A stretch of 64,000 nucleotides of DNA from an uncultured bacterium (GTDB lineage Bacteria > Fidelibacterota > Marinisomatia > Marinisomatales > TCS56): positions 114,959 to 178,958 of the forward strand of contig CAYTPW010000003.1 of assembly GCA_964439935.1 (NCBI GenBank), given 5' to 3'. The notes beneath the pieces were generated by a model, which saw nothing but the letters and a program-made list of their open reading frames with translations, ran no database searches and was not told where the DNA came from. Positions 13,349 through 63,113 of this stretch are shown here, piece by piece (the first letter of the stretch is position 1; every line of letters starts with the position of its first letter). A program made the translations under genes and the position numbers.

Positions 13349-13441
13349 TGGGAATGATTGCGCGGCTGGTGCCCGCCGCGGTCTTCAAAACCGTTGGGAC
13401 CTGCACACCAGGTCCGCTGGGTTCGATTCCCAGGCGTTCCC
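13349..13441 (+). tRNA. selC: tRNA-Sec (anticodon UCA)
   Basis: Manual fold. 8-position acceptor stem GGGAATGA/GCGTTCCC (7 pairs plus a terminal A.G). T arm CTGGG-TTCGATT-CCCAG. Anticodon arm GCGGT-CTTCAAA-ACCGT with anticodon TCA. 7-bp variable arm GGACCTG-CACAC-CAGGTCC. Discriminator G. CCA not encoded. About 93 nt. Confidence 0.85.
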
Positions 13442-13707
13442 GCTAAGTAAGTAACAAGCTAAAAGATAAAAGTCAAAAAGTTAATTAGCCTGTATTCCCT
13501 GAATCCCAATTTCCAATTCATCAGCAAAGATTCCCAGCCTGACCACCGTAGCCTTGGCGTAGGTGAGCGTTCCCGCTAGACTTAATATTCTATAAAACAG
13601 TAACTTAGTTTGTAATTGCCTGATTTTTCCAATTGTTGATTAGTGTTGCTTAGGATATTTATGTGAACTTTTGGTGTGCAATGCCGTCAAAAACGAATGC
13701 TAATTAG

Positions 13708-21723: not shown

Positions 21724-23646
21724 ATGGAGCTTAATATGCGTTTAGTGAAATTGATCCTGTTGCTGTTAATTACTGTTATTTTTGCCCAGGAACAAATCCA
21801 GGTTGGCAACCTGATTATGGAAAATGTGCCTGAAATACCCGACGAAGTGAAACAGCGCACCCAGCAGTATCGTAATGTACGCTCCGCTTCTTTCCGTTCC
21901 TGGGACCCGCAAGGTTCCGGTATGTTGATCGGTACCCGGTTCGCCGAGACCACCCAGTTACATTATGTCGAGCAGCCGCTCGGAGTTCGGCAGCAAATCA
22001 CTTTTTTCGATGAACCTGTGAGTGGTGGTTCCTTCTGCCCGGCTACCGATAAACACGGTTTTTTATTCAGTAAAGATATTGGTGGAAACGAATATTATCA
22101 GATTTTCTATTTTAATTTAAAAGATGGATCCCATCAAATGCTCACCGATGGCGAATCGCGCAACGGTCTGGGACCCTGGTCGGAAAAAGGAGATCGATAT
22201 GCATTTACCAGCAATATGGGCAATGGTACTGATATGCAGGTTCATATCGGTACTCTCAATGGCGATGCGCCCAAACTGGTAGTACCGGAAGCAGGCTACT
22301 GGTTCCCGACCAGTTGGTCACCGGATGATAAAAAACTGCTGGTAGGACGGTATGTTTCGATCACTGAATCCTATCTCCATATTGTTGATCTTGAAACGGG
22401 TGTGATATCTGAAGTGAATCCAAGCGATCAGAAAATTGGATATGGCGATGCAGCTTTCAGTAAAGATGGCAAAGGCATCTACCTCACATCCGATGAAGAT
22501 ACCGAATTTAAATTTTTGCGCTATTATGATTTAGCCACTGGCGAATCAAAGCGGGTATCGGGGCATATTCCCTGGGATGTAATCGGTTTTACCCAATCTG
22601 ATGATGGCAAATATCTGGCTTATTTGACCAACGAGGATGCCGTTTCAAAGCTTCATGTAGTCCACACCAAGGATAATAAGGAAGTTGATATTCCAGCTTT
22701 ACCGATCGGAGATATTGGTGGGTTGAGTTTCCGGAAGGATAACCGTTACCTGTCACTTTCTTTTGACAATCCGCAAACACCCGGCGATATTTTTGTGATC
22801 GATATTAAGAAGAAAAAACTGGAACGCTGGACCAAGAGCGAGGTTGGCGGGCTAAACACTGCAAAATTCATTTTACCGGAACTGGTGCATGTAGAATCAT
22901 TTGATGGTTTGACTGTCCCGGCCTTTTTATTTAAGCCGCATAAACCGGGTCCATATCCGGTTGTGATTTACATCCATGGCGGTCCAGAGAGTCAGTATAC
23001 ACCATATTTTTCGTCCACGTTTCAGTACTGGATTAATGAATTGGGTCTGGCTGTTTTAGCTACCAACGTACGTGGCTCGGATGGCTATGGTAAAACCTAT
23101 CTTAAAATGGATAATGGTTATTACCGTGAGAATTCAGTAAAAGACATCGGTGCTTTTCTTGACTGGATTGATAATAATCCGGAGTTGAATACGGAAAAAG
23201 TAGCTGTATTTGGTGGATCTTATGGTGGTTACATGGTATTAGCCAGCATGACTCATTATAATGACCGTTTGGCAGCTGCTGTGGATGTAGTAGGTATATC
23301 CAATTTTGTTACTTTCCTGGAAAATACCAAAGCCTACCGGCGTGACGTACGCAGACCTGAGTATGGCGACGAACGTGACCCTGAAATGCGAGCATTCCTG
23401 GAAAGCATATCACCGTCCAATAATGCCCATAAAATATCAAAACCGTTATTTATAGTACAGGGATTCAATGATCCCCGCGTACCGGTGACGGAAGCGGAAC
23501 AGATGCGGGATGTGATCCGTGCCAATGGTGGTGATGTCTGGTATATGGTCGCGATGGATGAGGGCCACGGATTTCGTAAAAAGGTCAACCGCGATCACTA
23601 TTATAACGCAGTCAGTCTGTTCTGGGAAGAATTCCTTTTGAAATAA
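21724..23646 (+). CDS. S9 family serine peptidase (beta-propeller + alpha/beta hydrolase), secreted
   Basis: Signal peptide, PD40-like propeller region, nucleophile elbow GGSYGGYM, and C-terminal D/H region (QGFNDPRV...DEGHGF). Confidence 0.85.
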   Translation: MELNMRLVKLILLLLITVIFAQEQIQVGNLIMENVPEIPDEVKQRTQQYRNVRSASFRSWDPQGSGMLIGTRFAETTQLHYVEQPLGVRQQITFFDEPVSGGSFCPATDKHGFLFSKDIGGNEYYQIFYFNLKDGSHQMLTDGESRNGLGPWSEKGDRYAFTSNMGNGTDMQVHIGTLNGDAPKLVVPEAGYWFPTSWSPDDKKLLVGRYVSITESYLHIVDLETGVISEVNPSDQKIGYGDAAFSKDGKGIYLTSDEDTEFKFLRYYDLATGESKRVSGHIPWDVIGFTQSDDGKYLAYLTNEDAVSKLHVVHTKDNKEVDIPALPIGDIGGLSFRKDNRYLSLSFDNPQTPGDIFVIDIKKKKLERWTKSEVGGLNTAKFILPELVHVESFDGLTVPAFLFKPHKPGPYPVVIYIHGGPESQYTPYFSSTFQYWINELGLAVLATNVRGSDGYGKTYLKMDNGYYRENSVKDIGAFLDWIDNNPELNTEKVAVFGGSYGGYMVLASMTHYNDRLAAAVDVVGISNFVTFLENTKAYRRDVRRPEYGDERDPEMRAFLESISPSNNAHKISKPLFIVQGFNDPRVPVTEAEQMRDVIRANGGDVWYMVAMDEGHGFRKKVNRDHYYNAVSLFWEEFLLK

Positions 23647-23673
23647 AAATATTCACTCCATAAGGTAGCGAAA

Positions 23674-25833
23674 ATGAAAAAATCATTATGGTATGTAGTC
23701 CTATTAATTGCAGTCATGGTTGTTATGAGTTGTAATCGGACTGGTACCACCATTGAGCTAGTGCAAGAGACAGGAGATCCAATATTGAAACCACCCGTTG
23801 CTAAAATCAAACCGTATGAAATGACGCTTTTTGGCGATACCAGGATCGATAATTATTATTGGCTGAAGGAACGGGGCAGTGGCGAGGTGTTGGATTATTT
23901 AAAGGCAGAGAATGCCTATACTACCGAGCTGATGCGGCCGACTGAAGAACTTCAGGAACTGTTATTTGCTGAGATGAAAGGGCGAATCAAAGAATCTGAT
24001 TTATCAGTCCCAGTTAAAAAAGATCAGTATTACTACTATACTCGAACTGAAGAAGGCCGCCAGTATGATATCCATTGTCGCAAATTGGAGAATCTAGACG
24101 CACCAGAAGAAGTGCTCCTGGATGAAAATATATTGGCAGAGGGGAAAGAATACTATAATATTGGTGAATTTGAAGTCAGCCCCAATCACAAGATGCTGGC
24201 TTATTCAGTTGATCTATCCGGTGGAGAACATTTCACTATCTTCTTTAAAGATTTGGAGACCGGTACATTATATCCTGAACAAATTCCTGACTCTTATTAC
24301 AGTCTTGAATGGGCCAATGACAGCCGAACCATTTTTTACACGGTGGTAGATGAAGCCATGCGTCCATATAAATTATTCCGACATACAATTGGGACCAATC
24401 CGTCTGAAGATGCACTGGTTTATCACGAGACCGATGATTCATATTTTTTAAGTATTGATAAATCAAAGAGCCAGGCCTATTTATTCCTGGAACTGGGCAG
24501 TCAGGTCACGACTGAAATACATTTCTTGGACGCCGATGCACCACAGGACACATTTCAGGTAATTCATCCCCGGCAGTACCAGATGGAATATTCGGTTGTA
24601 CATCACGGCGAACGATTTTTCATCCTGACCAACGATGATGCGCTCAATTTCAAACTGATGGAAACACCGGTAACCGCACCTGAAAAAATCAATTGGACTG
24701 AGGTCATCGGGCATCAGGATAAAGTAAAGCTGGATAAAATTGATGTCTTTAAAGATTTTCTGATAGTAGTTGAACGGGATTACGGTTTGCGGAAAATTCT
24801 AGTTCATAATCTATCGGGAAATGATCAATATATTATTGAGTTTCCTGAGGCGTCCTATAAAATATTGTTGGATAAAAATCCTGACTTCAATTCCAATTAT
24901 CTACGCTTCACTTACTCCTCATTTATCACACCTAAATCAGTTTACGATTATAATCTGGTGACCAGGGAAAGAGAGTTGAAAAAGCAGGTTGAAGTGCTGG
25001 GTGACTATGATCCAGCTGATTATGAGACCGCCCGCCTATTTGCCACGGCTGATGATGGCCAGGAAATTCCGATTTCGTTAGTATATCGTTCCGGAATGGT
25101 CCGTAATGGTGAAAATCCGCTTTATTTGTATGGCTACGGCTCATATGGATATAATACCGATCCCAGGTTCAGATCATACCGCTTTAGCTTAATCGACCGG
25201 GGTTTTATCTATGCAATTGCCCACATCCGTGGGAGTAGTTATCTTGGCCGTGGTTGGTACGAGGATGGCAAATTGTTAAATAAAAAAAATACATTTACGG
25301 ATTTTGTAGCTTGTGCCGAGTATCTGGTTGAGAAACAATATACCAGACCGGAAAAACTGACGGCTAATGGCGGTAGCGCCGGAGGATTGTTAATGGGTGC
25401 TATTACCAATCTACGACCTGATTTCTTCAATGTTGTCATCGCTGATGTTCCATTTGTGGATGCTGTAACTACTATGCTCGATGAGTCAATTCCCCTGACG
25501 GTGATTGAATTTGATGAATGGGGTAATCCGAAAGAAGAGGAATTTTACTGGTACATGAAAGAATATTCACCTTACGATAATGTGGCAGCTAAGGAGTACC
25601 CCAATATGTTGATCACTGCTGGTTTAAATGATCCCCGTGTTCAATATTGGGAGCCGGCTAAATGGGCGGCTAAACTGCGGGCAACCAAGACCGATAATAA
25701 TCGGTTATTATTAAAAACCAACATGGGCGCCGGCCATCATGGCGCTTCCGGTAGATTTGACTATTTGAAAGAAATTGCCTTTGAGTATGCCTTTATTCTG
25801 GATTTAATTAATATGACTGACGGGGAACAATAG
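23674..25833 (+). CDS. ptrB: Oligopeptidase B-like S9A prolyl-oligopeptidase family peptidase
   Basis: 719 aa with D.YYWLKERGS N-terminal motif, GGSAGGLLMG nucleophile elbow, GLNDPRVQYWEPAKW, and GAGHHGASGRF. Confidence 0.85.
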   Translation: MKKSLWYVVLLIAVMVVMSCNRTGTTIELVQETGDPILKPPVAKIKPYEMTLFGDTRIDNYYWLKERGSGEVLDYLKAENAYTTELMRPTEELQELLFAEMKGRIKESDLSVPVKKDQYYYYTRTEEGRQYDIHCRKLENLDAPEEVLLDENILAEGKEYYNIGEFEVSPNHKMLAYSVDLSGGEHFTIFFKDLETGTLYPEQIPDSYYSLEWANDSRTIFYTVVDEAMRPYKLFRHTIGTNPSEDALVYHETDDSYFLSIDKSKSQAYLFLELGSQVTTEIHFLDADAPQDTFQVIHPRQYQMEYSVVHHGERFFILTNDDALNFKLMETPVTAPEKINWTEVIGHQDKVKLDKIDVFKDFLIVVERDYGLRKILVHNLSGNDQYIIEFPEASYKILLDKNPDFNSNYLRFTYSSFITPKSVYDYNLVTRERELKKQVEVLGDYDPADYETARLFATADDGQEIPISLVYRSGMVRNGENPLYLYGYGSYGYNTDPRFRSYRFSLIDRGFIYAIAHIRGSSYLGRGWYEDGKLLNKKNTFTDFVACAEYLVEKQYTRPEKLTANGGSAGGLLMGAITNLRPDFFNVVIADVPFVDAVTTMLDESIPLTVIEFDEWGNPKEEEFYWYMKEYSPYDNVAAKEYPNMLITAGLNDPRVQYWEPAKWAAKLRATKTDNNRLLLKTNMGAGHHGASGRFDYLKEIAFEYAFILDLINMTDGEQ

Positions 25834-25995
25834 ATTAATATCAACTAACTCTACAGGGTTGTATTTTATTTGTATCGCTACGCATGGTGTAGTATCGTAG
25901 TTTATAATTTATCCTGAATATAAAAACGGTTACACCAGAGGGTTTGTCACTTTCACCAAGCTGATCAGCGGACTTAAATTCTCCTCAGGAGGATA

Positions 25996-27366
25996 ATGTC
26001 CATGCCCTTACAATCGATCAATCCAGCTACCGAAGAAATCATCCATGAATACAGGGAAATGGATTCAACCGAATGGCAGGTGATTCTCGAACGGGTTCGG
26101 CAGGATTATGAGAATTGGAGTCGATCCGGATTTATCATACGGTCACAATTCATGCGTAATGCAGCGCAGTTGTTACGAGATAGGAAAGAACAGTATGGTG
26201 GATTGATGACCGCGGAGATGGGTAAACCGATCGCTCAATCTTTGGCTGAGGTCGAAAAATGTGCCTGGGTCTGCGATTATTATGCTGAAAATGCCGAAAT
26301 ATTCCTGACTGATGATGAAATTCCAACTGAAATGACCAGCAGCTACGTAGCCTATAAGCCATTGGGAATTATACTTGCGGTAATGCCCTGGAATTTCCCG
26401 TTCTGGCAGGTTTTTAGATTTGCCGCTCCGGCTTTGATGGCCGGCAATGGTGCTGTGTTAAAGCATGCTTCCAATGTCAGCGGGTGCTCCCTGGCAATCG
26501 AAGAAGTTTTTCGCGATGCAGGATTTCCCAGTAATATTTTCCGCACCTTGTTAATCGGTTCGGCGCAGGTCGGGGAAGTGATCAAACAACCACTTGTTCA
26601 GGCCGTAACTCTGACAGGCAGTACACCGGCAGGACAAGCAGTAGCGGCACAGGCCGGTGAAATGCTGAAAAAAACTGTGCTGGAATTGGGTGGAAGCGAT
26701 CCTTATATCATTCTGGCTGATGCCGATTTGGAAGCGGCTGCGGAAGCTTGCGTGTTTGCTCGCCTGTTGAATTGCGGCCAGAGCTGCATCGCTGCCAAAC
26801 GATTTATTATCGTTGAGGATGTTGCTGATCGCTTCGAAAAAATGTTGTTGGAGAAAATGCGCTTAAAATCGGTCGGCGATCCCATGGCAGATGTGGACTT
26901 GGGTCCGCTGGCCCGGATTGATTTAAGGGACGAACTGCATCAGCAGGTCGTTAGCAGTGTAACTCAGGGAGCCAGATTATTGCTGGGTGGTGAAATACCA
27001 GCTGGTGCTGGTGCTTTTTATCCACCCACGATATTAACTGATGTTAAACCCGGTATGCCTGCTTTCGATGAGGAATTATTCGGACCGGTTGCAGCGATAA
27101 CTCGAACCGCTGATACTACTGAAGCAATTAAATTGGCCAACCAGTCTGATTTTGGTCTGGGGGCAGCGGTGTTTACGCGTGACGTGGAAAAAGGCCGACA
27201 GATAGCTGAAGAGGAATTGAAAGCAGGTTGCTGTTTCGTCAATGATTTCGTACGTTCCGATCCAAGATTACCCTTCGGTGGAGTTAAAATGTCCGGCTAT
27301 GGTCGCGAGTTAGGCAGCTATGGAATTCGTGAATTCGTAAACATTAAAACGGTGTGCGTCAAATGA
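25996..27366 (+). CDS. NAD(P)-dependent aldehyde dehydrogenase (succinate-semialdehyde dehydrogenase-like)
   Basis: ALDH motifs LELGGSDP and NCGQSCIAAKRF. Length 456 aa. Confidence 0.85.
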   Translation: MSMPLQSINPATEEIIHEYREMDSTEWQVILERVRQDYENWSRSGFIIRSQFMRNAAQLLRDRKEQYGGLMTAEMGKPIAQSLAEVEKCAWVCDYYAENAEIFLTDDEIPTEMTSSYVAYKPLGIILAVMPWNFPFWQVFRFAAPALMAGNGAVLKHASNVSGCSLAIEEVFRDAGFPSNIFRTLLIGSAQVGEVIKQPLVQAVTLTGSTPAGQAVAAQAGEMLKKTVLELGGSDPYIILADADLEAAAEACVFARLLNCGQSCIAAKRFIIVEDVADRFEKMLLEKMRLKSVGDPMADVDLGPLARIDLRDELHQQVVSSVTQGARLLLGGEIPAGAGAFYPPTILTDVKPGMPAFDEELFGPVAAITRTADTTEAIKLANQSDFGLGAAVFTRDVEKGRQIAEEELKAGCCFVNDFVRSDPRLPFGGVKMSGYGRELGSYGIREFVNIKTVCVK

Positions 27367-27872
27367 AAAAACTAATGCTAATACTTTTGATATTATTACT
27401 TATTCTGTGTGTAGGCACGGCCCAGGAAAATCGAATCTTCTGGGATGGTGGAGACTGGAAAAGAGTTGCCTCCCGAGCCGACCACAATCCTGAATTAACC
27501 TATCGAATTAAAGCTGCCTATGTGAATGGTGCTCTAGATGGTCGTCTGTATTATTATTTAAAGACCTGGGCAATTAAGCAGGCTTTTGCTGATAGTTTAT
27601 ATTCCGAAACTGTGGATTATCTGACCACCCGGGAGCTGGTAAACTCCCTCGATAATTTTTATGCCGATCCTTTGAACTCATACATACCGGTTCCATCAGC
27701 AATCATTGTTGCTACCATGTATGCCGAACAGGTCTCATTGGAGGTAATTGATCAATATATTAAGCAGACCAAATTCTGGATTAATGAACTCCAATTGAAT
27801 ATGGAACGAGAAGGCTGGAACGAATTGCTGGACGCAAAATTGGATAAACACCTGAAGAAAACCGCTGATTGA
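27354..27872 (+). CDS. Hypothetical secreted protein
   Basis: ORF with signal peptide (LMLILLILLLILCVGTAQ). Overlaps the upstream stop by 13 nt. No recognisable family. Confidence 0.4.
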   Translation: MRQMKKLMLILLILLLILCVGTAQENRIFWDGGDWKRVASRADHNPELTYRIKAAYVNGALDGRLYYYLKTWAIKQAFADSLYSETVDYLTTRELVNSLDNFYADPLNSYIPVPSAIIVATMYAEQVSLEVIDQYIKQTKFWINELQLNMEREGWNELLDAKLDKHLKKTAD

Positions 27873-27934
27873 CCTATTAATGTCCGTATCCAGGGATTTG
27901 ATTTTGAAAGATCGTTAGTCTTCAATACTGGCGT

Positions 27935-28681
27935 TTACTCCGGTTCGATTATCTGTCGTATATATGTTTTCATCTTACTATAATGTGATCCCTTCCAATA
28001 TACTTTCCCACAGTCACGACACTGGACGAATTCCTCATAATACCGCTTTGTTTTATCTTCCAGTTTGTCAATGATTATGGTTTTATCCACTGATTCAAGC
28101 GATCCGTTACAGTGCAGGCAGCGGGTAAACGGTTTCAGTTGCTGCCCAAGATAGAACCGCTGTACTATTTCTTTAAGCTGTTGATCCGGATTTGAAGAAC
28201 GGACCAGGTATCCACGCTGAATGATTTTATGCATCAATATCTGACGATCTCCAGTTAATAGAATTCGTTTATGCACCACTACCTGCTCCAGCAGATCAGC
28301 TTTGGTATAAGTGTTTGAATATTCTACATCCAGCCCCAATAAACGCAACTTTCGTGCAAGTTTTCCCAGGTGCACATCTGCGATGAATCGTAAATGTCTT
28401 AAAGGTCGTTCCTGCAGTCTGGTAACATCGGTTATATCCAATGTTTCAAAGACCGGATAGATGCTGATACGGTCCTGATTCTGAACATGTTGATTGAAAT
28501 CCACCGATTGGTCATTTACCAAAACCAGGTCAACCTCGGTGTGTGGGACACCAAACGACTGAATGATATCCATTACAGTCGTTTTATGATCCAGTTGCTT
28601 GGATAAAGTTCTTTTTCGCTGGACTGGTTTCAGAAAATCATTTAATTCTTCATAAAAGCGGATTTGAATGGTGATTGGCAT
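27935..28681 (-). CDS. Ubiquitin-like (beta-grasp) + Mut7-C PIN-like RNase domain protein
   Basis: N-terminus IQIRFYEELNDFL...FGVPHTEVDLVLVNDQSVDF...DRISIYPVFE matches the Ub-Mut7C pattern. C-terminus has RFIADVHLGKLARKLRLLG and a CxxC...CxxC zinc ribbon (CLHCNG...CRDCGKVYWKGSHY). ATG at 28681 lies 1 nt after the upstream stop. Confidence 0.7.
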   Translation of the reverse strand: MPITIQIRFYEELNDFLKPVQRKRTLSKQLDHKTTVMDIIQSFGVPHTEVDLVLVNDQSVDFNQHVQNQDRISIYPVFETLDITDVTRLQERPLRHLRFIADVHLGKLARKLRLLGLDVEYSNTYTKADLLEQVVVHKRILLTGDRQILMHKIIQRGYLVRSSNPDQQLKEIVQRFYLGQQLKPFTRCLHCNGSLESVDKTIIIDKLEDKTKRYYEEFVQCRDCGKVYWKGSHYSKMKTYIRQIIEPE

Positions 28682-28682
28682 A

Positions 28683-29606
28683 TCAAAGCAATCGCTGTAG
28701 TCCGGCTGTGCGGGCAATCTCAACGGCCTTTTGATATTCCAGTGATGTGATTGTGCGATTTATTTCAGGAAAAGAGTTGTCTTTCACCTTATATTGGGGT
28801 CGGTACTGGGTCATTAAATTTATTGCGGTTTCTAATGATATTTCTGTGGCGATGAAGTTGAGTATCTGACTGGTGTCGCTTAAGTGACCAGGCATCAGCA
28901 GATGGCGTATAATTAGACCCCGCTGGGCAATTCCGTTTGAATCCAATATGAGATCACCTACCTGACGGTGTATTTCCTGCAGGTTGCTAATGGCAACCGC
29001 GGGATAGTCTTCAGCATTCAAATATTGTATTGCTGAGTTAGCAGCCAGAAATTTTATATCGACCAGGTAGATATCAACAATCTGATCCAACAGCCTGAGA
29101 GCCGTCAAACTGTCATAACCGCTGGTATTGTAAACCAGCGGGATATGCAATCCCTTATCAATTGCATACGGTAGGCTTTCGAGGATCGGTGCAACGACGT
29201 GTGAAGGTGTTACCAGATTAATATTGTGACAACCCTGGTCCTGAAGCTCAATCATCATGCCTGCCAGTTCAGTCGCGGAAGTCCGGTGATTGTTGATTGA
29301 ATTACTTATTTCCCAATTCTGACAGAAAGCACAGTGCAGATTGCAACCAAAAAAGAAAATCGTTCCCGATCCCCTGGATCCTCTCAGGCAGCTTTCTTCA
29401 CCAAAATGGGGAAAATAGCTGGAAACCTCGGCTTCTCGACCAATGCCACAAACCTTACCCGGTACAAGATTGCGATCCACACGACATTCCTGCGGACATA
29501 AACAGCAATCATTCATCAATTCTTGACCAATTCGAATCCGTTTAGCCAGAAGACCGGAAACAGAAGCTTCCAGATAAACTGGTTCAAATGTTGTTGACAT
29601 GATCAT
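28683..29606 (-). CDS. Radical SAM protein, PflX/PflA-like activase family
   Basis: CNLHCAFCQNWEIS (CxxxCxxC) cluster motif with an additional N-terminal Cys-rich stretch. 307 aa. Confidence 0.8.
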   Translation of the reverse strand: MIMSTTFEPVYLEASVSGLLAKRIRIGQELMNDCCLCPQECRVDRNLVPGKVCGIGREAEVSSYFPHFGEESCLRGSRGSGTIFFFGCNLHCAFCQNWEISNSINNHRTSATELAGMMIELQDQGCHNINLVTPSHVVAPILESLPYAIDKGLHIPLVYNTSGYDSLTALRLLDQIVDIYLVDIKFLAANSAIQYLNAEDYPAVAISNLQEIHRQVGDLILDSNGIAQRGLIIRHLLMPGHLSDTSQILNFIATEISLETAINLMTQYRPQYKVKDNSFPEINRTITSLEYQKAVEIARTAGLQRLL

Positions 29607-29793
29607 TCAATACCGATTTTTCGATCCAAGCTACTATGGGCTGGATCAAGCTTAAATTAATACTATTCAGAATGATCCGCCATAATATTTAACGTGCTGG
29701 CAGTCTGTTCAAATTCTATCCGACCGCTCTTTGAAGAATCGAATCAATTGGTTATTTTCCCGACTTGAATTTCCGAAAACCAATATAGATTAA

Positions 29794-31260
29794 GTGAAAA
29801 TCATGCGGAATATTATTAAACTTATTATTTGTATATTGATCTTAATTTCAGTCAATTGTGAGATGAAGAAATCCACCAGCAGTATTCCTTTCGACTTGCC
29901 TGAACCGACCCTGAAACCGTCAATCTTTGCCGCTCAGCACATTTCGATCACCGGAGCTGATGAGCGGGATATCTGCATATCAAGTACTGGGGATGAGATT
30001 TATTTTTCACGAAATGCTAATATCATGGTAGTAAAAAAAGTTGGCAAAACCTGGGGTGAGGCAACAGCAGCGGAATTCTCAAGTGAATTCCCGGAATTTG
30101 AAGCTCAGCTCACACCGGATGGAAACAGTGTGTATTTTATTTCGCGCCGCCCACTAAGCGGAACCGGAGAAGCTGAAGATTGGCAGATTTGGTATTCCAA
30201 ACGTCAGGAGACCAGCTGGTTGGAACCCCTGAGGTTTAATGATAAAATGGATTTTTACCCCACTTTCACAACCAATGGCTACATGTATTTTACTGACGCG
30301 CAGAATGATATTTACCGCATTGCATTTTCCAACAATCAAACTGGAGATCGGGAGAAATTACCGGAAGTGATCAATACCTATCAGGCGGAATACAACGCTT
30401 TTATTGCTTCTGATGAGAGTTATCTTATTTACACCAGTCATAACCAATCAGGTGAACTTGGTGGAGGGGATCTTTACATTAATTTTCGGAATGAAGATGG
30501 CAGTTGGGGGTCGGTACGGCATATGGGACCGGGAGTTAATTCTCCCACCCTTGATTACTGTCCCTATGTGAGCCCGGATGGGAAATATTTCTTTTTTTCC
30601 AGCCGGCGTACTGGTGAAGAGGATATTTATTGGGTCGATGCCCAAATTATTGACGACCTGAGATCGGTAGATCTGGATTGTATCACCGGTCTGATGGCTG
30701 AACTGGACCAGGTCGTTTTAAGCCAGGCAATGGAATATTATCAGGCATTCATCGTTAAAAATGCAGACTATGCTGATTATGATGGAAGTATCCTGAATTC
30801 TTTGAAAAACAGGCTGTTGGAAAATGGCCAAATTGAGCAAGCCCAAGCTACACTGAACTATTACATCAATGAATACCCGGATTATCAGCACTGGTTATCG
30901 GCATTGGAGAAAGCAATATTAACGAACTCGTTAGTTACTATAAATGCAGTTTATGACACACTGGTTGCCAGGCGTAGTGAATTGCCACAGAATTTTGAGC
31001 AGCAGGTAAATTCACTGGGCTATCGCTACCTGCGATTCCGGTCAATCCTGCTGGCCCGAGCAATTTTCAAGCTAAACACGCAGTTGTTTCCCAATTCCTT
31101 CAATGTTTTTGATAGTTATGGTGAAATATTATTGGCTTCCGGGGATACAATCCGGGCGCTGTCAAACTACCGCAAATCACTGGAATTGAATCCCGAGAAC
31201 ACCAATGCTGAAAATATTCTAAAACAATTGAATTTCGAATCCCGATCACTTCCCGAATAA
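29794..31260 (+). CDS. Secreted PD40/TolB-like beta-propeller repeat protein with C-terminal TPR region
   Basis: Repeated ..PDG..vYF.SRR.. units (TPDGNSVYFISRR, SPDGKYFFFSSRR). TPR-like C-terminal third. Signal peptide. Confidence 0.6.
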   Translation: MKIMRNIIKLIICILILISVNCEMKKSTSSIPFDLPEPTLKPSIFAAQHISITGADERDICISSTGDEIYFSRNANIMVVKKVGKTWGEATAAEFSSEFPEFEAQLTPDGNSVYFISRRPLSGTGEAEDWQIWYSKRQETSWLEPLRFNDKMDFYPTFTTNGYMYFTDAQNDIYRIAFSNNQTGDREKLPEVINTYQAEYNAFIASDESYLIYTSHNQSGELGGGDLYINFRNEDGSWGSVRHMGPGVNSPTLDYCPYVSPDGKYFFFSSRRTGEEDIYWVDAQIIDDLRSVDLDCITGLMAELDQVVLSQAMEYYQAFIVKNADYADYDGSILNSLKNRLLENGQIEQAQATLNYYINEYPDYQHWLSALEKAILTNSLVTINAVYDTLVARRSELPQNFEQQVNSLGYRYLRFRSILLARAIFKLNTQLFPNSFNVFDSYGEILLASGDTIRALSNYRKSLELNPENTNAENILKQLNFESRSLPE

Positions 31261-31393
31261 TGGGTAGTAAAGTAAAATTGAGTAGTTTATTTCAATCTTC
31301 CTATCAGGTGGTGAATGTAATTTCACCCCGAATTTTGCAGGTGAAAACTGAATATGTCAGGTAATTTACATCGACCCGACACAACTCATCATT

Positions 31394-33496
31394 ATGAGGC
31401 GTACTACCGTGAAACATCTTTATTTGCTAACGTTATTCATTGTTTGCATTATGGGCTCTAATTCTGATCCAAACCCATTATTAAGCCAGTGGAATACTCC
31501 ATTTGAGGTACCCCCGTTTGATCAAATAGAAGTCAAGCATTACTTGCCGGCGCTTATGGCTGGAATTGAACAGGAAAAGCTGGAAATTGAGTCAATAACT
31601 AATAATCAGGAACCACCTGATTTTACTAATACAATTGAGGCATATGAAGCAACGGGTCAATTACTTGAACGGGTTGAGAATGTTTTTGGCAACATCACTT
31701 CCACAGATGCAACGGACGAACTGGATGTCATCCGACGTGAATTTCGTCCTATTAAATCACGACATCGTGATGATATCCTACTGGACAAAAAACTTTTCCA
31801 ACGAATCAAAGATGTCCATAATAAACAAAACAGGAGTCTTTTAACCGTTGAACAGAATACCTTACTGGAAAAAATATACCAGGATTTCGTACGTAATGGT
31901 GCCAGCCTTGCAGAAGCGGAAAAAGTAGTACTGCGTCAGATAAATGAAGATTTAGCTATGTTAACCATGGAGTTTGGCCAAAATATCCGCAAGGAAATAG
32001 AAACCTGGGAGATGGTCCTTGAAAATGAAACTGATCTGGTAGGACTGCCAGAACGTGTAGTACAAATGGCTGCTCAATTAGCAGAAGAACGGGGAAAATC
32101 CGGCAAATGGCTGTTTACCCTGGATAAACCCAGCTGGATTCCATTTCTTCAGTTTTCCGAGCGCCGGGATCTGCGGGAGAAGATCTACAATGGTTATATC
32201 AACCGGGGGAATAACAACGATCAACTAGATAATAATACACGAATAAATAAAATCGTAAACTTGCGAATAAAAAGAGCTAATCTATTGGGCTATACCACTC
32301 ATGCTGATTACGTATTAGAACGTAGCATGGCAGAAAATCCAGCCAATGTCTATGATTTATTGAATAGATTATGGAAACCTGCCTTGAGACGAGCGAAAGC
32401 TGAAGCAGCGGAATTCCAGGCTTTGATCGATCGAAATGGCGGAGATTTCAAGCTGCAGTCCTGGGACTGGTGGTATTATGCTGAAAAATTACGTAAAGAA
32501 AAATATGATCTTAATGAAAGTCAACTTCGACCCTATTTCGAAATCAATAATGTGCGCGATGGGGCCTTTACTGTTGCTAATAAGTTGTATGGAATTACGT
32601 TTGAAGAGCGTGCGGATATTCCGGTTTATCAACCCGAAGTAAAGGTCTTTGAGGTCAAAGAATCTGACGGTACCTATATCGGATTGTTGTACACCGATTA
32701 TCATCCGCGGGTCGGAAAATATTCCGGTGCTTGGGCCAGCGGTTTTCGCAGTCAATCCAACCGCAATAATAACTGGGTAACGCCGATCAGCATCAATGTC
32801 TGCAACCTTTCCAGTGCCACCGTTGATCAGCCGGCCTTAATCAGTTTCAGTGAAGTTGAAACGCTGTTCCATGAATTCGGTCATGCCCTCCATGGATTGC
32901 TCCGAAACCGGACTTACGCCAATCAGGTAATGCCCCGGGATTTTGTTGAGCTACCCAGTCAAATAATGGAAAACTGGGCGGTGGAACCGACGATCTTGAA
33001 ACTGTATGCCCGTCATTACCTGACCGGTGATCCATTACCGGATGAATTGATTGATAAACTGGCTGCCTCCAGTCTACATAATCAGGGTTTTAAAATGACG
33101 GAATACCTGGCCGCATCGCTTTTGGATATGGATTGGCACACGCTTGGTGAACCAACCGATCAGAATCCGATCGAATTTGAAAATGCTTCTTTTGAAGTAA
33201 TGGGTTTGATCCCGGAGATAATTTCTCGCTATCGCAGTCCTTATTTTAATCACATATTCTCCGGTGGCTATTCGGCAGGTTATTACAGTTATATCTGGGC
33301 CCAGGTTCTGGATGCTGACGCATTCCAGGCGTTTAAGGACAGTGATCTGTTCGATCAGGAGCTGGCAGGCCGCTTCCGGAAATATGTGCTTGGTTTAAGC
33401 GGTACCAGGGATGCTATGGAAATCTATCGTGAATTCCGCGGACAGGATCCACAGATTGAACCATTGCTGATTAAACGGGGGTTGTTCGAGGAATAG
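31394..33496 (+). CDS. dcp: M3A peptidyl-dipeptidase Dcp / oligopeptidase A-like zinc peptidase
   Basis: HEFGHALH zinc motif, overall M3 architecture, 700 aa, hydrophobic N-terminal leader. Confidence 0.85.
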   Translation: MRRTTVKHLYLLTLFIVCIMGSNSDPNPLLSQWNTPFEVPPFDQIEVKHYLPALMAGIEQEKLEIESITNNQEPPDFTNTIEAYEATGQLLERVENVFGNITSTDATDELDVIRREFRPIKSRHRDDILLDKKLFQRIKDVHNKQNRSLLTVEQNTLLEKIYQDFVRNGASLAEAEKVVLRQINEDLAMLTMEFGQNIRKEIETWEMVLENETDLVGLPERVVQMAAQLAEERGKSGKWLFTLDKPSWIPFLQFSERRDLREKIYNGYINRGNNNDQLDNNTRINKIVNLRIKRANLLGYTTHADYVLERSMAENPANVYDLLNRLWKPALRRAKAEAAEFQALIDRNGGDFKLQSWDWWYYAEKLRKEKYDLNESQLRPYFEINNVRDGAFTVANKLYGITFEERADIPVYQPEVKVFEVKESDGTYIGLLYTDYHPRVGKYSGAWASGFRSQSNRNNNWVTPISINVCNLSSATVDQPALISFSEVETLFHEFGHALHGLLRNRTYANQVMPRDFVELPSQIMENWAVEPTILKLYARHYLTGDPLPDELIDKLAASSLHNQGFKMTEYLAASLLDMDWHTLGEPTDQNPIEFENASFEVMGLIPEIISRYRSPYFNHIFSGGYSAGYYSYIWAQVLDADAFQAFKDSDLFDQELAGRFRKYVLGLSGTRDAMEIYREFRGQDPQIEPLLIKRGLFEE

Positions 33497-33584
33497 GGAA
33501 ATAATTTCAGAACCGATCGATAAACAAACAAAATATTGATCTTTATAAATTGCACCTGCTGCAATTGGGTAACTGGAATTGTAA

Positions 33585-34454
33585 TTAAATCTTACCTTCC
33601 GTATTTATGGAGCGATAGAAACTCCGCATTTCCACTACCATATCTCCGCTGTGGGTATGTGTATTGGTTTCCATATCTAGGTAGGTGCAGTTTGGGAGCT
33701 GGGGTGTCATCTTGGCCAGGTTACCCGGTTCATGCAGGTGATCGGTCGCTGCTCCGATAATCAGGGTTGGGACGTTAATCCCGGGTAAGATATCCCAGAT
33801 TTCATATTTCGCCAGGGATAGAGCAGCCCGTTTCAAACGATAAGGATCAGTATCATCCAGATTTTGGCAATATTTTTCATACTGATCAGCATCTGCTTCC
33901 GTGTCCAGCCTAAATGTTCTCAAATACCATTTTAAAAATATTCTCAACAGTGAATAGTAACGTAGCGGAAAAAGATGGATTAATAGTTTCCCCCACCAGG
34001 GCACCCGGAAAACGGCATTGGGTCCGATCAGGATTAAAGCCAACGGTGTCCGTTCAAGATCCTGGCAGGCATGAAGAATTGCGGTTCCTCCTAGTGAGCT
34101 GCCCAGCATAATATATTTTTTATCACGAAGCTTGAAATGTTTGATCAAGTAAATCAGGTCATTAGCTATCACTTCGACACTCAATTCATCTTTCCTAGGG
34201 ATAATTGCTGACAGCTTGTCACGCGTTTCCACATAATAGACTTTATGGTCCCGGGTCATTTCCAGCAATGCATGCTTCCAACTGGTGACCCGTGAAATCC
34301 AGCCGGGAACAAAAAATATATTTGGTTGGGCGGTAGACACTGGTGGAATAATTGTCATTACCCGCAGAGATACGGTATCTGAAATTGATATCAGCTCATC
34401 CTGGATTTGACATCCGGGAGCGCAATACTGCTCGATATCGAACATGTTATCCAA
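33585..34454 (-). CDS. Alpha/beta hydrolase
   Basis: Nucleophile elbow LGSSLGG, and a C-terminal His region. 289 aa. Confidence 0.7.
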   Translation of the reverse strand: MDNMFDIEQYCAPGCQIQDELISISDTVSLRVMTIIPPVSTAQPNIFFVPGWISRVTSWKHALLEMTRDHKVYYVETRDKLSAIIPRKDELSVEVIANDLIYLIKHFKLRDKKYIMLGSSLGGTAILHACQDLERTPLALILIGPNAVFRVPWWGKLLIHLFPLRYYSLLRIFLKWYLRTFRLDTEADADQYEKYCQNLDDTDPYRLKRAALSLAKYEIWDILPGINVPTLIIGAATDHLHEPGNLAKMTPQLPNCTYLDMETNTHTHSGDMVVEMRSFYRSINTEGKI

Positions 34455-34474
34455 TACGGATAAATCTTTGCAGT

Positions 34475-35419
34475 TTACATGACAACCCTGATCGCCTGTT
34501 TCATTACCGAGTAGCGGGCTGGAGGATAGCCGATGATCTCACCGTCGGTTTCGATGCAGATCCTGGATTTGGAATCGATTTCAAGTTTACTGCAGCGCCA
34601 ATGGTGAGCGCATTCCTTCTTCAAAACTGTTCCAGTATATAATGTAGGTATTAAAGCCAACAACCTCAGACGTGACAGGGGATCCACCAGCGCCACATCT
34701 ACCATCCCGTCGTCCTGGATACAATCAATGCCATAATTCATTCCACCACCAAAATAACCGGTTTTAAAGACGGTCAGATTGCTCATGAAATCACCTTCCC
34801 GAATTACACCATCAACTTTGATCTGACAATCGATAGGCTCGAATTCACGGATGGCGCTCAAACCGGCTAGAATAGCAGCGGCATCGACGCTTAACTGCTT
34901 GATCAGTTTGGAGAATCCGGTCACTTTATTGTATTTATCCCCACCCGAACTGATGATACCAATACTGGAATTATTAATGAAATAGCGGCTTGTATTAGAA
35001 TTATTCATATCCAGACAATCCACCCGGCAGATATCGATTTTAGTTGTTTCCTGGCTGGCGAATCGCTCCAGCATGCTGCGGTTACCTGGGAATTTCCGGG
35101 CAAAATCACAGCTGCTGCCGGCGGGAAAATAAACTAATTGCAGATCAGATGTCACCTGTTCGCCATATTGAGCGAGGCCCTGGAGAGTCTCGTTGAGAGT
35201 ACCATCCCCGCCAAAAACAGCAATGCGCTTGAAACCGTCGCGAATCAAACCAGCAGCGATATCAGTGGCATGGGTTGGTTGCTCGGTCAATTTATATTCG
35301 AATCGCTGGTGATTTGCTTCTAGCTGGTTTTTGAATTTTTTCCAGCGCTTGGCTGCCAGTCCTTCGCCAGCGGCGGGATTGCAGATGATAAAAGTGCGGT
35401 TGGTAATTACCTGCTCCAT
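34475..35419 (-). CDS. Diacylglycerol kinase-family lipid kinase (YegS/BmrU-like)
   Basis: DAGK catalytic-domain motifs IICNPAAG and VFGGDGTLNE. Confidence 0.8.
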   Translation of the reverse strand: MEQVITNRTFIICNPAAGEGLAAKRWKKFKNQLEANHQRFEYKLTEQPTHATDIAAGLIRDGFKRIAVFGGDGTLNETLQGLAQYGEQVTSDLQLVYFPAGSSCDFARKFPGNRSMLERFASQETTKIDICRVDCLDMNNSNTSRYFINNSSIGIISSGGDKYNKVTGFSKLIKQLSVDAAAILAGLSAIREFEPIDCQIKVDGVIREGDFMSNLTVFKTGYFGGGMNYGIDCIQDDGMVDVALVDPLSRLRLLALIPTLYTGTVLKKECAHHWRCSKLEIDSKSRICIETDGEIIGYPPARYSVMKQAIRVVM

Positions 35420-35727
35420 AATTCCCTAACGAGTTGATTGCCTTAAACTATGAACAATATCAAGTTAGTCGCAAAGTAAGAATTTATCTGTTTCGGAGTA
35501 GTTGATTTTAATCAACACGGATATCGAAATACTCTCGCTTAGATTATTTCATTTAAGGAATTAATTTTTCTCTGACAACCAAAAGCATTCAGGGGCGTCT
35601 TAGGTTGATGGTTATTAACTCTGGTAGAGAGAGTACGTCCGTTTTATGAAAAAAGAATCTTCTAAACTGACGGTTATCTTTATCTGTTACCAATTCAAAT
35701 GAACCTGATTTTGAAAGGAGAGCACCC

Positions 35728-37590
35728 ATGAAATCCAGAATTATTCTATCTGGAATATTAGTTCTAGCTTGTTTTTCACCTATTCTTGCGCAGAGTGATA
35801 TACCTCAGCGAAGTGACATCGAAATACAGTATCAGTGGAATTTGCAGGACATTTACCCAACTGTCGATGACTGGGAAAATGATTTTAAAATTGTTGAATC
35901 CGGATTATCAGAATTTTCGAAATTTAATGGCAAATTAAAGTCATCCGGCTCTATGATCCTTAAATGTCTCGAACTGGATTCCAAATTATCGCTGAAGATC
36001 GATAATCTTTATGTTTATGCTGGATTATTGAAAGATGAGGATACGCGGATATCGGATAACCAGGCTCTGAATGATCGTGCGCGGGGATTGTATGTGAAAT
36101 ATGGTGAAGCAACTTCTTTCATTCTGCCTGAACTCCAGACCATTCCTGAGAAAAAATTAAATAAATTTATTGTGAAAACACCGGGTCTTGAGGTTTATAG
36201 ATTTTTCTTCGATAATCTGATTCGTCAGCGGGAACACACACTGTCATCCAAAGAGGAAGAATTACTGGCAATGGCCGGTGACCTGTTTCGTGGACCCAGG
36301 AAGATCCATGAGGCACTCACCACTACAGATATGGTGTTTCCGATGGTAAAAGATGAGGATGGTTCTGAAATTCGGCTGACCCGGGGACGTTATTCCAAGT
36401 TATTGCAGTCCCGTGATCCGGAAATTCGCCGTGGTGCCTTTCTGGGACGGACCGAAGCATTCGATAAAGTCAAGAATACCAACGCTGCCGTCTTTGATAC
36501 CTATCTGAAAAAGGATCTCTTCATCAGCCGCGCCCGCAAGTACAATAGCACTCTGGAGATGTCTCTGGATGCGGATAATGTACCAGTCGGGGTTTTTAAT
36601 AATTTACTAAATACAGCCTATGATAATGTTGGTGCTTTAAATCGTTATATGGAATTACGCCGCAAAGTTATGGGATTGGATGAAATTCATCTTTACGATA
36701 CGGCCGTTCCAATTGTCGAGGATGTCAGTCTGGATGTAGCTTATAACGATGCGGTCGCGACACTGATTAAGGCCTTTGAACCAATGGGTGAAGAATATGT
36801 TGAAATGGTGAAAAAAGGTTTCGCTTCCCATTGGGTCGATGTATATGAAACAGAGGCAAAACGGAGTGGGGCTTACTCCTGGGGTACCTACAGCTCGCAT
36901 CCTTATATACTGATGAATTACAATGACACGCAAAGGGCTATGTTTACCCTGGCACATGAAATGGGTCATGCCATGCATAGTTATTATTCCAATGCGATCC
37001 AGCCCTATCCAACATCCGGTTACACCCTGTTTGTTGCTGAAGTGGCCTCTACCTTTAATGAAGCATTGCTGATGGATTATCTGTTGAAAAATACTGACGA
37101 TCCCAAATTGAAACTGGCTTTACTGGATCGCTGGGTCAATAATTTCCTGGGTACCGTATTCACCCAGATCATCTTTTCGGAGTTTGAGCGTAACGCTCAT
37201 CAGATGGCAGGCGAAGGGAATCCCGTAACGGTGGAATCATTGAATCAGGCTTACTTCGATGTTGAAGATAAATGGTATGGCGATGTAGCCGTAATTGATG
37301 ACGGATATAAACTGAACTGGGGTCGGATTCCCCATTTTTACCGCCGCTTTTATGTCTATAAATATGCCATCAGTTACTGTGCTTCTGCAGCCTTATCTAA
37401 AGCGGTTTTGGAAGGACGTGAAGGCGCCCTGGAGAATTACATGAATTTTCTGAAATCAGGAGGCAACGATTATCCGATCGAACAGCTGAAAGCTGCTGGC
37501 GTGGATCTTTCATCGCCGCAGCCGATTGAAGATGCAATGACTCTTTTCAACGATCTGGTAGCTCAAATGGAAGAATTGCTCCTGGATTGA
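35728..37590 (+). CDS. pepF: M3B oligoendopeptidase F, with signal peptide
   Basis: HEMGHAMH zinc motif and PepF-like length and sequence. N-terminal signal (ILSGILVLACFSPILAQ). Confidence 0.85.
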   Translation: MKSRIILSGILVLACFSPILAQSDIPQRSDIEIQYQWNLQDIYPTVDDWENDFKIVESGLSEFSKFNGKLKSSGSMILKCLELDSKLSLKIDNLYVYAGLLKDEDTRISDNQALNDRARGLYVKYGEATSFILPELQTIPEKKLNKFIVKTPGLEVYRFFFDNLIRQREHTLSSKEEELLAMAGDLFRGPRKIHEALTTTDMVFPMVKDEDGSEIRLTRGRYSKLLQSRDPEIRRGAFLGRTEAFDKVKNTNAAVFDTYLKKDLFISRARKYNSTLEMSLDADNVPVGVFNNLLNTAYDNVGALNRYMELRRKVMGLDEIHLYDTAVPIVEDVSLDVAYNDAVATLIKAFEPMGEEYVEMVKKGFASHWVDVYETEAKRSGAYSWGTYSSHPYILMNYNDTQRAMFTLAHEMGHAMHSYYSNAIQPYPTSGYTLFVAEVASTFNEALLMDYLLKNTDDPKLKLALLDRWVNNFLGTVFTQIIFSEFERNAHQMAGEGNPVTVESLNQAYFDVEDKWYGDVAVIDDGYKLNWGRIPHFYRRFYVYKYAISYCASAALSKAVLEGREGALENYMNFLKSGGNDYPIEQLKAAGVDLSSPQPIEDAMTLFNDLVAQMEELLLD

Positions 37591-61850: not shown

Positions 61851-61898
61851 TTTTCTAATCGTTGGATGGTTGAGCGATTGGTTATTTACGGAGCTGAA

Positions 61899-62936
61899 AT
61901 GAAAAAACTGATTATTGGAACCAGTCTATTTTTTTTAATTGCCTGTAGCACAAAATCACCCCAATTTCCCTGGGCGAGCTTATCACTGCAAGAAGCTCAG
62001 CAGGTAGCTGGCGATAAATTGATAATGCTCGATTTTTATACCGAATGGTGAAGTTGGTGTAAACGGCTGGATGCCGATGTATTTCCAGATTCAAAGATCA
62101 TTGATTTTGCCACCGAAAATCTAATTAGCCTTAAAATTGATGCTGAAAAAGACCAGGGACCGGTTCTGCGTGATCGGTTTAATCCACCCGGTTTTCCCAC
62201 TGTAATCATTATTAATCCGGATGGCTCCGAAGTGGATCGTATTGTGGGCTATCGACCGGTTGAGGAATTTCTGAGTGAATTAAAGCGGATCAAGCGCAAC
62301 GAAGGAACTATTGATGACCTGAGCCATCGTTTAGCGAATTTCCCGGAGAATGATTCCCTGATCCAGCTATTAGCTGAAAAATATGAGGATCGGGGAGATC
62401 TGGAAGCTGCGCTGCCACATTGGGAAAGACTGGCTGTGCTGTCAGCTGTTCAAAGAGATCTGGCGCATTATAAGATTGCTCATACTTCCAGCCGGATCGA
62501 AAAAACAGCTGATCCGCTGATCGAGTTTCTTGCATCAAATCCCTCCGGGTCTTTTACCGCAGATGCGTATCGATCTCTGCGAAGCTTTTATCGCAGTATA
62601 AAAGATACCAGCACCGAAGTTCAAACCTATATTGATTTTATTGCCTATCTGGATCGTAAAAATGAAATCAGTCCTGGTGATCTCAATGGTTATGCCTGGC
62701 GAATGACGCAATTGGAGAAAAATCTTGAGGATGCACTTTTAAAAATCAGGATTGCTGTTGAATTAACGGCCGAGGGTGAAGCAGAGGAACGGGCTGGAAT
62801 AATGGATACGGAAGCAGAAGTATTATGGAAACTCGGTCGCATTTCCGATGCTGTAGCCGTAATTGAAAAATGCATCGAATTACAGCCAGAAGATAGTTAT
62901 TTTAAAGAACAAAAGGAGAAGTTCTTAAAAAGCTGA
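61899..62936 (+). CDS. Selenoprotein: lipoprotein with thioredoxin fold (W-U-S-W-C redox motif, Sec at codon 51 = TGA 62049-62051) and C-terminal TPR-like domain
   Basis: Track ORFs 61866..62051 and 62232..62936 share one frame, and the TGA is the only stop between them. Read-through gives DFYTEW-U-SWCKRLD...GFPTVIIINPDGSEVDRIVGY, a complete Trx fold. GGAG lies 5 nt before ATG 61899. Lipobox FLIAC. tRNA-Sec is present at 13349. Confidence 0.75.
62064..62076 (+). promoter_or_regulatory. Candidate bacterial SECIS apical hairpin
   Basis: CGGC-UGGAU-GCCG stem-loop starts 13 nt after the UGA, with loop G residues 18-19 nt downstream. The stem is short and I could only weakly extend the lower stem. 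Confidence 0.35.
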
Positions 62937-63113
62937 GAATTCTTTAATTCAAATCTTTTCATTAGATGCCGTCGCTAACAGGGTTGGCATCTGTGTTTTA
63001 TAATAACCTGCTGTAATGTTGCAAGGATCAACCTCTGCATAACGAAAGAGCCCCAACGATGTTTGTAGGGAATATGCAATTTGTACCAAGTTTCAATTGT
63101 TAGTGAAAAAGAT

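Follow-up and report, generated by a model that had tools for sequence, protein, structure and literature searches.

Thioredoxin-fold proteins that carry selenocysteine (Sec) at the first position of a UxxC motif are the commonest class of bacterial selenoprotein. DsbD-gamma, DsbH and the Bacteroides protein 2kuc are all periplasmic reductive thioredoxin-like modules, and the domain cd02953 is taken here to be that of DsbD-gamma. CnoX, also called YbbN, is cytoplasmic, and the E. coli protein lacks a CxxC motif. The UxxC thioredoxin-like selenoproteins found in the GOS ocean metagenome, designated 'Trx-like 2', belong to cd02953 (PMC2398784), so that Sec in a DsbD-gamma-like thioredoxin domain is already known, and UxxC families named Trx-like or 'thiol:disulfide interchange protein' are listed in Table 1 of PMC13188914. 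The former agrees with the statement, in an initial annotation of the DNA examined here, that thioredoxin-like selenoproteins are known from marine metagenomes. The present study concerns positions 61899-62936 of a stretch of 64,000 nucleotides from an uncultured bacterium (contig CAYTPW010000003.1, positions 114,959 to 178,958 of the forward strand), the whole of which is referred to as the window. This locus is very probably one selenoprotein gene, encoding an exported lipoprotein with a thioredoxin domain and a tetratricopeptide repeat (TPR) domain, in which Sec replaces the catalytic Cys. The features seen directly are the continuity of the open reading frame (ORF), the alignment of Sec with Cys, the conservation and covariation of a selenocysteine insertion sequence (SECIS), a tRNA-Sec, the thioredoxin and TPR folds, and a signal peptide with a lipobox.

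The reading frame and its internal UGA codon

Translation from ATG 61899 gave a single frame of 345 codons ending at TGA 62934-62936, in which the sole in-frame stop was TGA 62049-62051 (LIMLDFYTEW*SWCKRLDADVF). The two ORFs listed for the window, 61866..62051 and 62232..62936, are in this same frame with nothing but that TGA to interrupt it, as the initial annotation had claimed. The start at 61899, and not the upstream ATG 61866, fits the N-termini of the aligned homologs, and the GGAG that had been pointed out 5 nt before it lies at 61890-61893. The downstream ORF does start at an internal GTG, 62232, and no Shine-Dalgarno-like sequence was apparent by eye in the 25 nt preceding it, in agreement with the earlier remark that it lacks a ribosome-binding site. 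The final stop, 62934-62936, is also TGA and is not followed by a SECIS-type hairpin; UGA would thus be read two ways in one mRNA, about 885 nt apart (62049 vs 62934).

61890..61893, + strand: Shine-Dalgarno-like GGAG, 5 nt 5' of ATG 61899, read from the sequence
61899..62936, + strand: full selenoprotein coding sequence including the proposed Sec51, 345 codons with one internal TGA
62049..62051, + strand: UGA assigned to Sec, residue 51, attacking position of the U-S-W-C redox motif; Cys in 20 genomic homologs, TGA in 58
62058..62060, + strand: resolving Cys54 (TGT) of UxxC; TG, columns 13-14, invariant in 55/55 Sec sequences of alignment A2

The scan covered one genome for each GTDB species and returned 80 loci. 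Those with a taxon name came mostly from Marinimicrobia/Neomarinimicrobiota/Fidelibacterota metagenome-assembled genomes, and many others were labelled only 'uncultured bacterium'. The first position of xUxxC was occupied as follows.

In-frame TGA: 58 loci
TGC or TGT: 20 loci
Cut by the contig end: 2 loci

TGA stood at the identical column in 58/78 scorable species-level genomes, with flanks conserved in frame on both sides, and the closed chromosomes CP070656.1 and CP070638.1 carry TGA forms. When protein collections were searched with the read-through query, 387 relatives were obtained in two classes, 1) full-length proteins of 339-414 aa covering 94-100% of the query and 2) N-truncated proteins of approximately 234-305 aa that start at varying points past the UGA column. 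The full-length Cys homologs, 339-414 aa long, align with the read-through protein from end to end and have Cys exactly at the UGA column, in the motifs WC[STV]WC or GCSWC. In PDB entry 2kuc the Cys of WCGPC is likewise aligned to the UGA column of W-U-SWC. The initial annotation had placed the UGA at the nucleophilic Cys of a WCxxC motif, and both 2kuc and the 20 genomic loci with TGC or TGT have Cys there. An in-frame UGA aligned with the Cys of homologs, with coding conservation on either side, is expected of a bacterial selenoprotein gene, and this was the pattern found. Conservation of the segment 62052-62231 at the protein level, which had been set in advance as a check, is evident from the Cys homolog P0002, which matches 96% of the read-through protein at 58% identity.

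A sequencing or assembly error at one base of a TGC or TGT Cys codon would be enough to create the TGA. However, the same TGA was present in 58 independent assemblies of different species and projects, it recurred where Logan had assembled the sequence independently, and it was coupled to a hairpin, described below, that the Cys forms lack. The chance of such an error is negligible, and this explanation is effectively refuted by the comparative data.

The UGA could also be a real stop, in which case the locus would be a pseudogene or would consist of two genes, one for a 50-aa lipoprotein stub and another for a TPR protein independently translated from GTG 62232. NCBI and the gene callers do annotate two ORFs, TGA is a common stop in the window (19 of 50 genes), and no sel genes were found there. 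Against this, the TGA and its conserved in-frame flanks have been kept in 58 species-level genomes, the gap of 180 nt that separates the ORFs codes for most of the thioredoxin fold, resolving Cys included, and shows protein-level conservation, the annotated starts of the shortened ORFs vary between homologs, and the GTG has no apparent Shine-Dalgarno-like sequence before it. Moreover, the hairpin is specific to the TGA forms, and purifying selection acts on both sides of the codon in many species. A genuine stop is thus highly improbable, and a read-through selenoprotein gene is the reading retained.

The suspicion that gene callers had mis-split the gene was well founded. The 234-aa downstream ORF of the window is stored as a separate protein, P0001, in NCBI and Logan, and at sister loci the callers give a 49-51-aa stub and then a shortened ORF. 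Two other entries, P0008 and P0014, read WWSWC. In the DNA of P0014 (L085:501-1520), which has TGG TGA AGT TGG TGC and then the same CGGCTGGATGCCG hairpin, the second W is a TGA translated as Trp. In at least 58 species-level Marinimicrobia/Fidelibacterota genomes the gene is stored split, shortened or with Trp at the active site, and as a result the domain architecture, the localisation signal and the catalytic residue are all lost from the annotation. The gene is widespread in the Marinimicrobia, an abundant marine phylum, and its mis-splitting there is systematic.

The gene order around the Cys-form P0019, RNase R, DUF4837, RmlD, GT2, AccA, 4HBT and then the thioredoxin-TPR gene, is the same as in the window, which suggests that the Sec and Cys forms are orthologs. 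The two states were interspersed on a neighbour-joining tree, and Fitch parsimony placed Sec at the midpoint root with at least 10 changes, although the tree is rough and the figure is to be read as 'many switches' rather than as an exact count. One Cys form, L019:3151 (JAUWFQ010000038.1, TGC), groups among the Sec forms L020, L022 and L075 and has kept the CGGCUGGAUGCCG hairpin whole. It resembles a recent switch from Sec to Cys in which the SECIS survives as a relic. Another Cys-form homolog, L059:3001-4024 (CBDURO010000005.1), loses its frame soon after the active site, which points either to a pseudogene with a frameshift or to an error of assembly.

The SECIS hairpin and the Sec tRNA

After the UGA comes a SECIS-type hairpin that is specific to the TGA forms and shows covariation as well as conservation. 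The elements concerned, and the tRNA that would read the codon, are the following.

62064..62076, + strand: conserved SECIS core, stem CGGC/GCCG, apical loop UGGAU, 12 nt after UGA; RNAalifold and covariation
62049..62093, + strand: extended, interrupted, window-specific SECIS stem-loop with UGA in its base; ViennaRNA; lower stems not conserved across homologs
13350..13443, + strand: tRNA-Sec gene (selC), anticodon UCA, discriminator G 13442; ARAGORN and Rfam RF01852

The pattern TGA-N12-CGGCTGGATGCCG occurred once in the window, where 0.03 matches were expected by chance. The 13-mer was identical in 37/55 Sec sequences and the four pairs were kept in every variant: the stem changed to CGAC/GUCG twice, to CAGC/GCUG twice and to CUGC/GCAG once, with G-U pairs in five cases, and the loop variants were UGGAC and UGGAA. 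RNAalifold, applied to the 55 sequences, picked exactly these four pairs, with 0/220 cells broken and with five double-sided and five G-U changes. Four further Sec loci also keep the hairpin, one as CGGU/ACCG, a compensatory change of the loop-closing pair, and one with the loop UGUUA. In all, the four pairs were intact in 59/59 Sec sequences, with compensatory changes at three of the four. The hairpin was absent from 14/15 Cys forms examined, L019 being the exception, and the mean minimum free energy (MFE) of the 19-nt segment was -7.6 kcal/mol in the Sec forms vs -1.1 kcal/mol in the Cys forms (Mann-Whitney p = 8e-8).

In the protein the hairpin corresponds to R-L-D-A, which many Cys forms also have, and synonymous codons were compared in order to separate conservation at the RNA level from that at the protein level.

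Arg CGG: Sec forms 50/52; Cys forms 3/9; window-wide usage 27%
Leu CTG: Sec forms 55/55; Cys forms 7/15; window-wide usage 36%
Ala GCC: Sec forms 45/49; Cys forms 3/6; window-wide usage 32%

The model for bacterial SECIS elements (bSECIS) specifies an apical loop of 3-9 nt, an upper stem of 4-16 bp, a G within loop positions 1-2 that mostly has G or U after it, a distance from UGA to the loop of 16-37 nt, and an MFE no higher than -7.5 kcal/mol (PMC13188914). The window hairpin fell within each of these limits, having a loop of 5 nt, four G-C pairs, G at loop position 2 followed by G, a spacing of 16 nt, and an MFE of -12.5 kcal/mol for the extended form (62049-62096, ViennaRNA). Two larger folds were set aside. 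A long-range fold of 62040-62130 was no better than shuffled sequence (z = -0.71), and its inner hairpin, CUGGA...UCCAG, is window-specific. A two-pair extension of the stem (columns 17-33 and 18-32) was paired in only about 55-62% of the sequences and lies outside the conserved core.

The tRNA-Sec gene reported earlier in the same window is indeed there, on the forward strand at 13350-13443. It was called by ARAGORN with the anticodon TCA, it scored 68.3 bits against Rfam RF01852 (gathering score 47), and by eye its acceptor stem is formed by 13350-13356 paired with 13435-13441, with G at the discriminator position 13442. The gene stands alone, between a gene for an SPOR/TPR protein (12402-13259) on one side and one for a subtilisin-like protease with a type IX secretion system (T9SS) tail (13758-17480, - strand) on the other, and no sel gene adjoins it.

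The UGA might be recoded to something other than Sec, that is, to Cys by a Cys-charged tRNA resembling tRNA-Sec or to Trp or Gly under an alternative code. For some bacteria it has been proposed that tRNA-Sec-like tRNAs insert Cys in a SelB- and SECIS-dependent way, and the public entries P0008 and P0014 give Trp at this codon. However, TGA serves as the ordinary stop in those 19 of the 50 window genes, indicating that the code is not reassigned, and a scan for same-frame ORFs joined by TGA disclosed no other convincing selenoprotein gene in the 64-kb window, so that only one convincing gene has an in-frame TGA. The homologs show Cys at the column, never Trp or Gly. The tRNA matches the Rfam tRNA-Sec model at 68 bits and its discriminator is G, not U; a G fits charging by seryl-tRNA synthetase, whereas U is expected for Cys identity. 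Recoding to another residue is therefore improbable, and Sec is the preferred assignment.

Protein domains, proposed function and genomic setting

The domains of the read-through protein are as follows.

61899..61946, + strand: signal peptide MKKLIIGTSLFFLIAC, lipobox L-I-A-C, Cys16 at 61944-61946; read from the sequence
61977..62291, + strand: thioredoxin-fold domain, approximately residues 27-131, related to DsbD-gamma, DsbH and 2kuc; Pfam, PDB and Foldseek
62196..62198, + strand: cis-Pro of the thioredoxin fold, P100 in GFPT; invariant column in the family
62301..62918, + strand: C-terminal all-helical TPR-like domain, approximately residues 135-340; Pfam TPR_14, AlphaFold2 (AF2) and Foldseek

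The signal peptide ends in a lipobox of the bacterial lipoprotein type, [LVI][ASTVI][GAS]C, as the initial annotation had proposed, and the sequence continues after Cys16 with STKS. Nearly all homologs have a signal peptide, and at least 58 of the 74 with a complete N-terminus have a lipobox-type Cys past the hydrophobic N-terminus. A subclade of Sec forms, L004-L007 and L010, has a hydrophobic signal peptide with no lipobox Cys (for example ...LLSTLIGQQQ...), so these proteins are probably soluble in the periplasm and not lipid-anchored.

For the Pfam search Cys was substituted at the internal stop. The thioredoxin fold had been described as uninterrupted across the UGA, and three thioredoxin-family models that span the TGA, matching residues 35-129, scored above their cut-offs: Thioredoxin_2 (PF13098; 40.9 bits, cut-off 27), Thioredoxin (PF00085; 35.1 bits, cut-off 23.5) and Thioredoxin_7 (30.9 bits, cut-off 27). 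All three run across codon 51. With these scores, U51xxC54 and the invariant cis-Pro P100 in GFPT, the protein has the attributes of a thioredoxin-fold oxidoreductase. TPR_14 matched at 25.8 bits (cut-off 23.5), and other TPR models matched below their cut-offs. The structure was modelled with AF2 for P0002, the 58% identical Cys homolog. The model (pLDDT 94.4, pTM 0.86) showed a thioredoxin fold at residues 27-129 (pLDDT >95) followed by 13 helices, and this helical domain resembled designed consensus TPR superhelices in the PDB (Foldseek TMq 0.42-0.44). The TPR_14 score, the 13 helices and the superhelix matches together identify a TPR-repeat domain. Cys325 (62871-62873, KCIELQPED), in the TPR domain, is far from the active site in sequence and conserved in at least 90% of the homologs.

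From these features we infer the insertion of Sec itself, the cellular location, the direction of redox flow and the kind of partner or substrate. Translation would initiate at ATG 61899, and at UGA 62049 the ribosome would meet SelB carrying the Sec-tRNA(Sec) encoded at 13350-13443, recruited by the mRNA hairpin CGGC-UGGAU-GCCG that starts 12 nt 3' of the UGA. Sec would be inserted as residue 51, and elongation would go on to TGA 62934. The protein is predicted from its sequence to be exported via the signal peptide and lipidated at Cys16, and the mature form would be a membrane-anchored, envelope-facing thiol/selenol-disulfide oxidoreductase with the active site W-U-S-W-C. By analogy with DsbD-gamma, DsbH and the Bacteroides 2kuc protein, it most likely acts reductively on envelope proteins, with electrons presumably supplied by a membrane protein of the DsbD/CcdA type and with Sec serving as a stronger nucleophile than Cys. 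The TPR domain of about 200 residues probably docks client substrates or the redox partner.

Several observations weigh against this interpretation, 1) no selA, selB or selD was detected among the 39 window ORFs scanned against Pfam or NCBIfam, which include every ORF of at least 262 aa in the window gene list, 2) the conserved stem is only 4 bp long and the spacing 16 nt, both at the bSECIS minimum, 3) the U and U that flank the loop do not form the N1-N2 pair common in the bSECIS model, 4) the hairpin overlaps the conserved peptide R-L-D-A, so that part of its conservation is at the protein level, and 5) no conserved neighbouring redox-partner gene was seen among the homolog loci, synteny being limited to close relatives, so that the functional part of the proposal is drawn by analogy only. 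With regard to the fourth, the contrasts at synonymous sites and between Sec and Cys forms indicate that the conservation is not all at the protein level. The sole match to a selB model in the window was LepA, through the shared GTPase domain, and it was discarded. SAR406 single-cell genomes are listed as carrying SelD (Peng et al., PMC5029168), which is consistent with a Sec trait but not decisive.

The remainder of the window includes one further element near the gene.

62974..62998, + strand: terminator-like hairpin with T-rich tail, 3' of the stop codon; consensus scan, weak, the regional number of such sites not being above chance

The genes at 3131-6868 (- strand) and 13758-17480 (- strand), for the type IX secretion sortase PorU and for the serine protease with a T9SS C-terminal tail, fit an organism of the FCB group (Marinimicrobia/Fidelibacterota). 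A run of peptidase genes at 21724-37590, encoding an S9 Dpp5-like peptidase, oligopeptidase B, the peptidyl-dipeptidase Dcp and oligoendopeptidase F, suggests that the organism lives by degrading proteins or peptides.

Comparison with known systems

The closest solved relative by sequence was the 'putative disulphide-isomerase' of Bacteroides thetaiotaomicron, 2kuc (E 6.6e-19, 39% identity), followed by protein disulfide isomerase and DsbD-gamma domains. When the thioredoxin domain of the P0002 model was superposed with Foldseek, TMt was 0.79 for 2kuc, 0.69 for DsbH and 0.68-0.76 for DsbD-gamma. Unlike the window protein, these three are Cys proteins with no TPR domain. The best NCBIfam matches were the C-terminal thioredoxin domains of TsoB and DsbD, and then DsbH. 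The top match, TsoB (E 3.9e-17; 61.6 bits, cut-off 805), covered only the C-terminal 130 of the 572 model positions. Like the window protein, TsoB has a DsbD-gamma-like thioredoxin domain, at its C-terminus, and is itself a selenoprotein family, but its Sec motif is UxxxxU and its architecture is different. DsbD (NF001419) scored 49.5 bits (cut-off 330) over the gamma domain only (profile 471-572), so the protein is not a full-length DsbD, and DsbH scored 37.6 bits (cut-off 190). All of these scores are far below the cut-offs, and no curated family covers the window protein; annotation that depends on NCBIfam is left with no name for it.

The only solved structures with the thioredoxin-TPR architecture are those of CnoX/YbbN (PDB 3qou and 3qdn), which, like the window protein, place the thioredoxin fold at the N-terminus and the TPR domain at the C-terminus. 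In the PDB, the top whole-chain Foldseek matches of the P0002 model were YbbN/CnoX of E. coli and the homolog from Salmonella (E about 2e-6, with 1.6e-6 over 327 columns for the top match; both domains aligned). However, the identity was 16%, TM was 0.25-0.31 and the root-mean-square deviation was 22 A. These values indicate that the architecture is common to both while the arrangement of the domains differs. YbbN was absent among the 60 PDB sequence matches listed. Further differences of the window protein are its signal peptide, its lipobox and its UxxC active site. It shares the order of thioredoxin then TPR with the CnoX/YbbN family, but it neither superposes as a member of a single family nor has the features of a cytoplasmic protein.

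Taken jointly, the results raise the possibility, put forward tentatively and with somewhat less than even confidence, that these proteins form an undescribed family of exported thioredoxin-TPR 'chaperedoxin-like' selenoprotein lipoproteins, in which Sec is ancestral across the Marinimicrobia/Fidelibacterota and has been replaced by Cys independently at least about 10 times, and which uses an unusually minimal, nearly invariant 13-nt SECIS lying on R-L-D-A. If so, a marine phylum of global abundance would need selenium for the redox homeostasis of its envelope, and the family would offer a natural experiment on the exchange of Sec and Cys and on the minimal requirements of a SECIS. The selenoprotein assignment of the locus, which is much the firmer of the two, would add the exported thioredoxin-TPR architecture to the selenoproteome and would mean that the Sec trait serves an envelope redox protein in members of an ocean phylum that is abundant and uncultured. 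Sec and Cys forms contrast cleanly, the hairpin and the constraint on synonymous sites being tied to TGA, and the family is a compact case on which to train and test SECIS models at the lower limit of element size, as well as a clean example of a minimal SECIS.

No mention of a TPR-fused thioredoxin selenoprotein, of a lipoprotein form or of Marinimicrobia selenoproteins was found in the literature searched, which included two reviews and the GOS paper; some of the GOS reads may derive from the family described here. The window protein resembles the known UxxC thioredoxin selenoproteins in its thioredoxin fold, in having Sec first in UxxC, in the in-ORF bSECIS just downstream and in its many Cys homologs, and PF13098, the Pfam family of that known class, is also its best Pfam match. 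It is unlike them in the fusion to a TPR domain of about 200 residues and in its lipoprotein signal peptide. In mechanistic terms it is an ordinary type of bacterial selenoprotein, belonging to the already-known UxxC class, and its value lies mainly in annotation and ecology.

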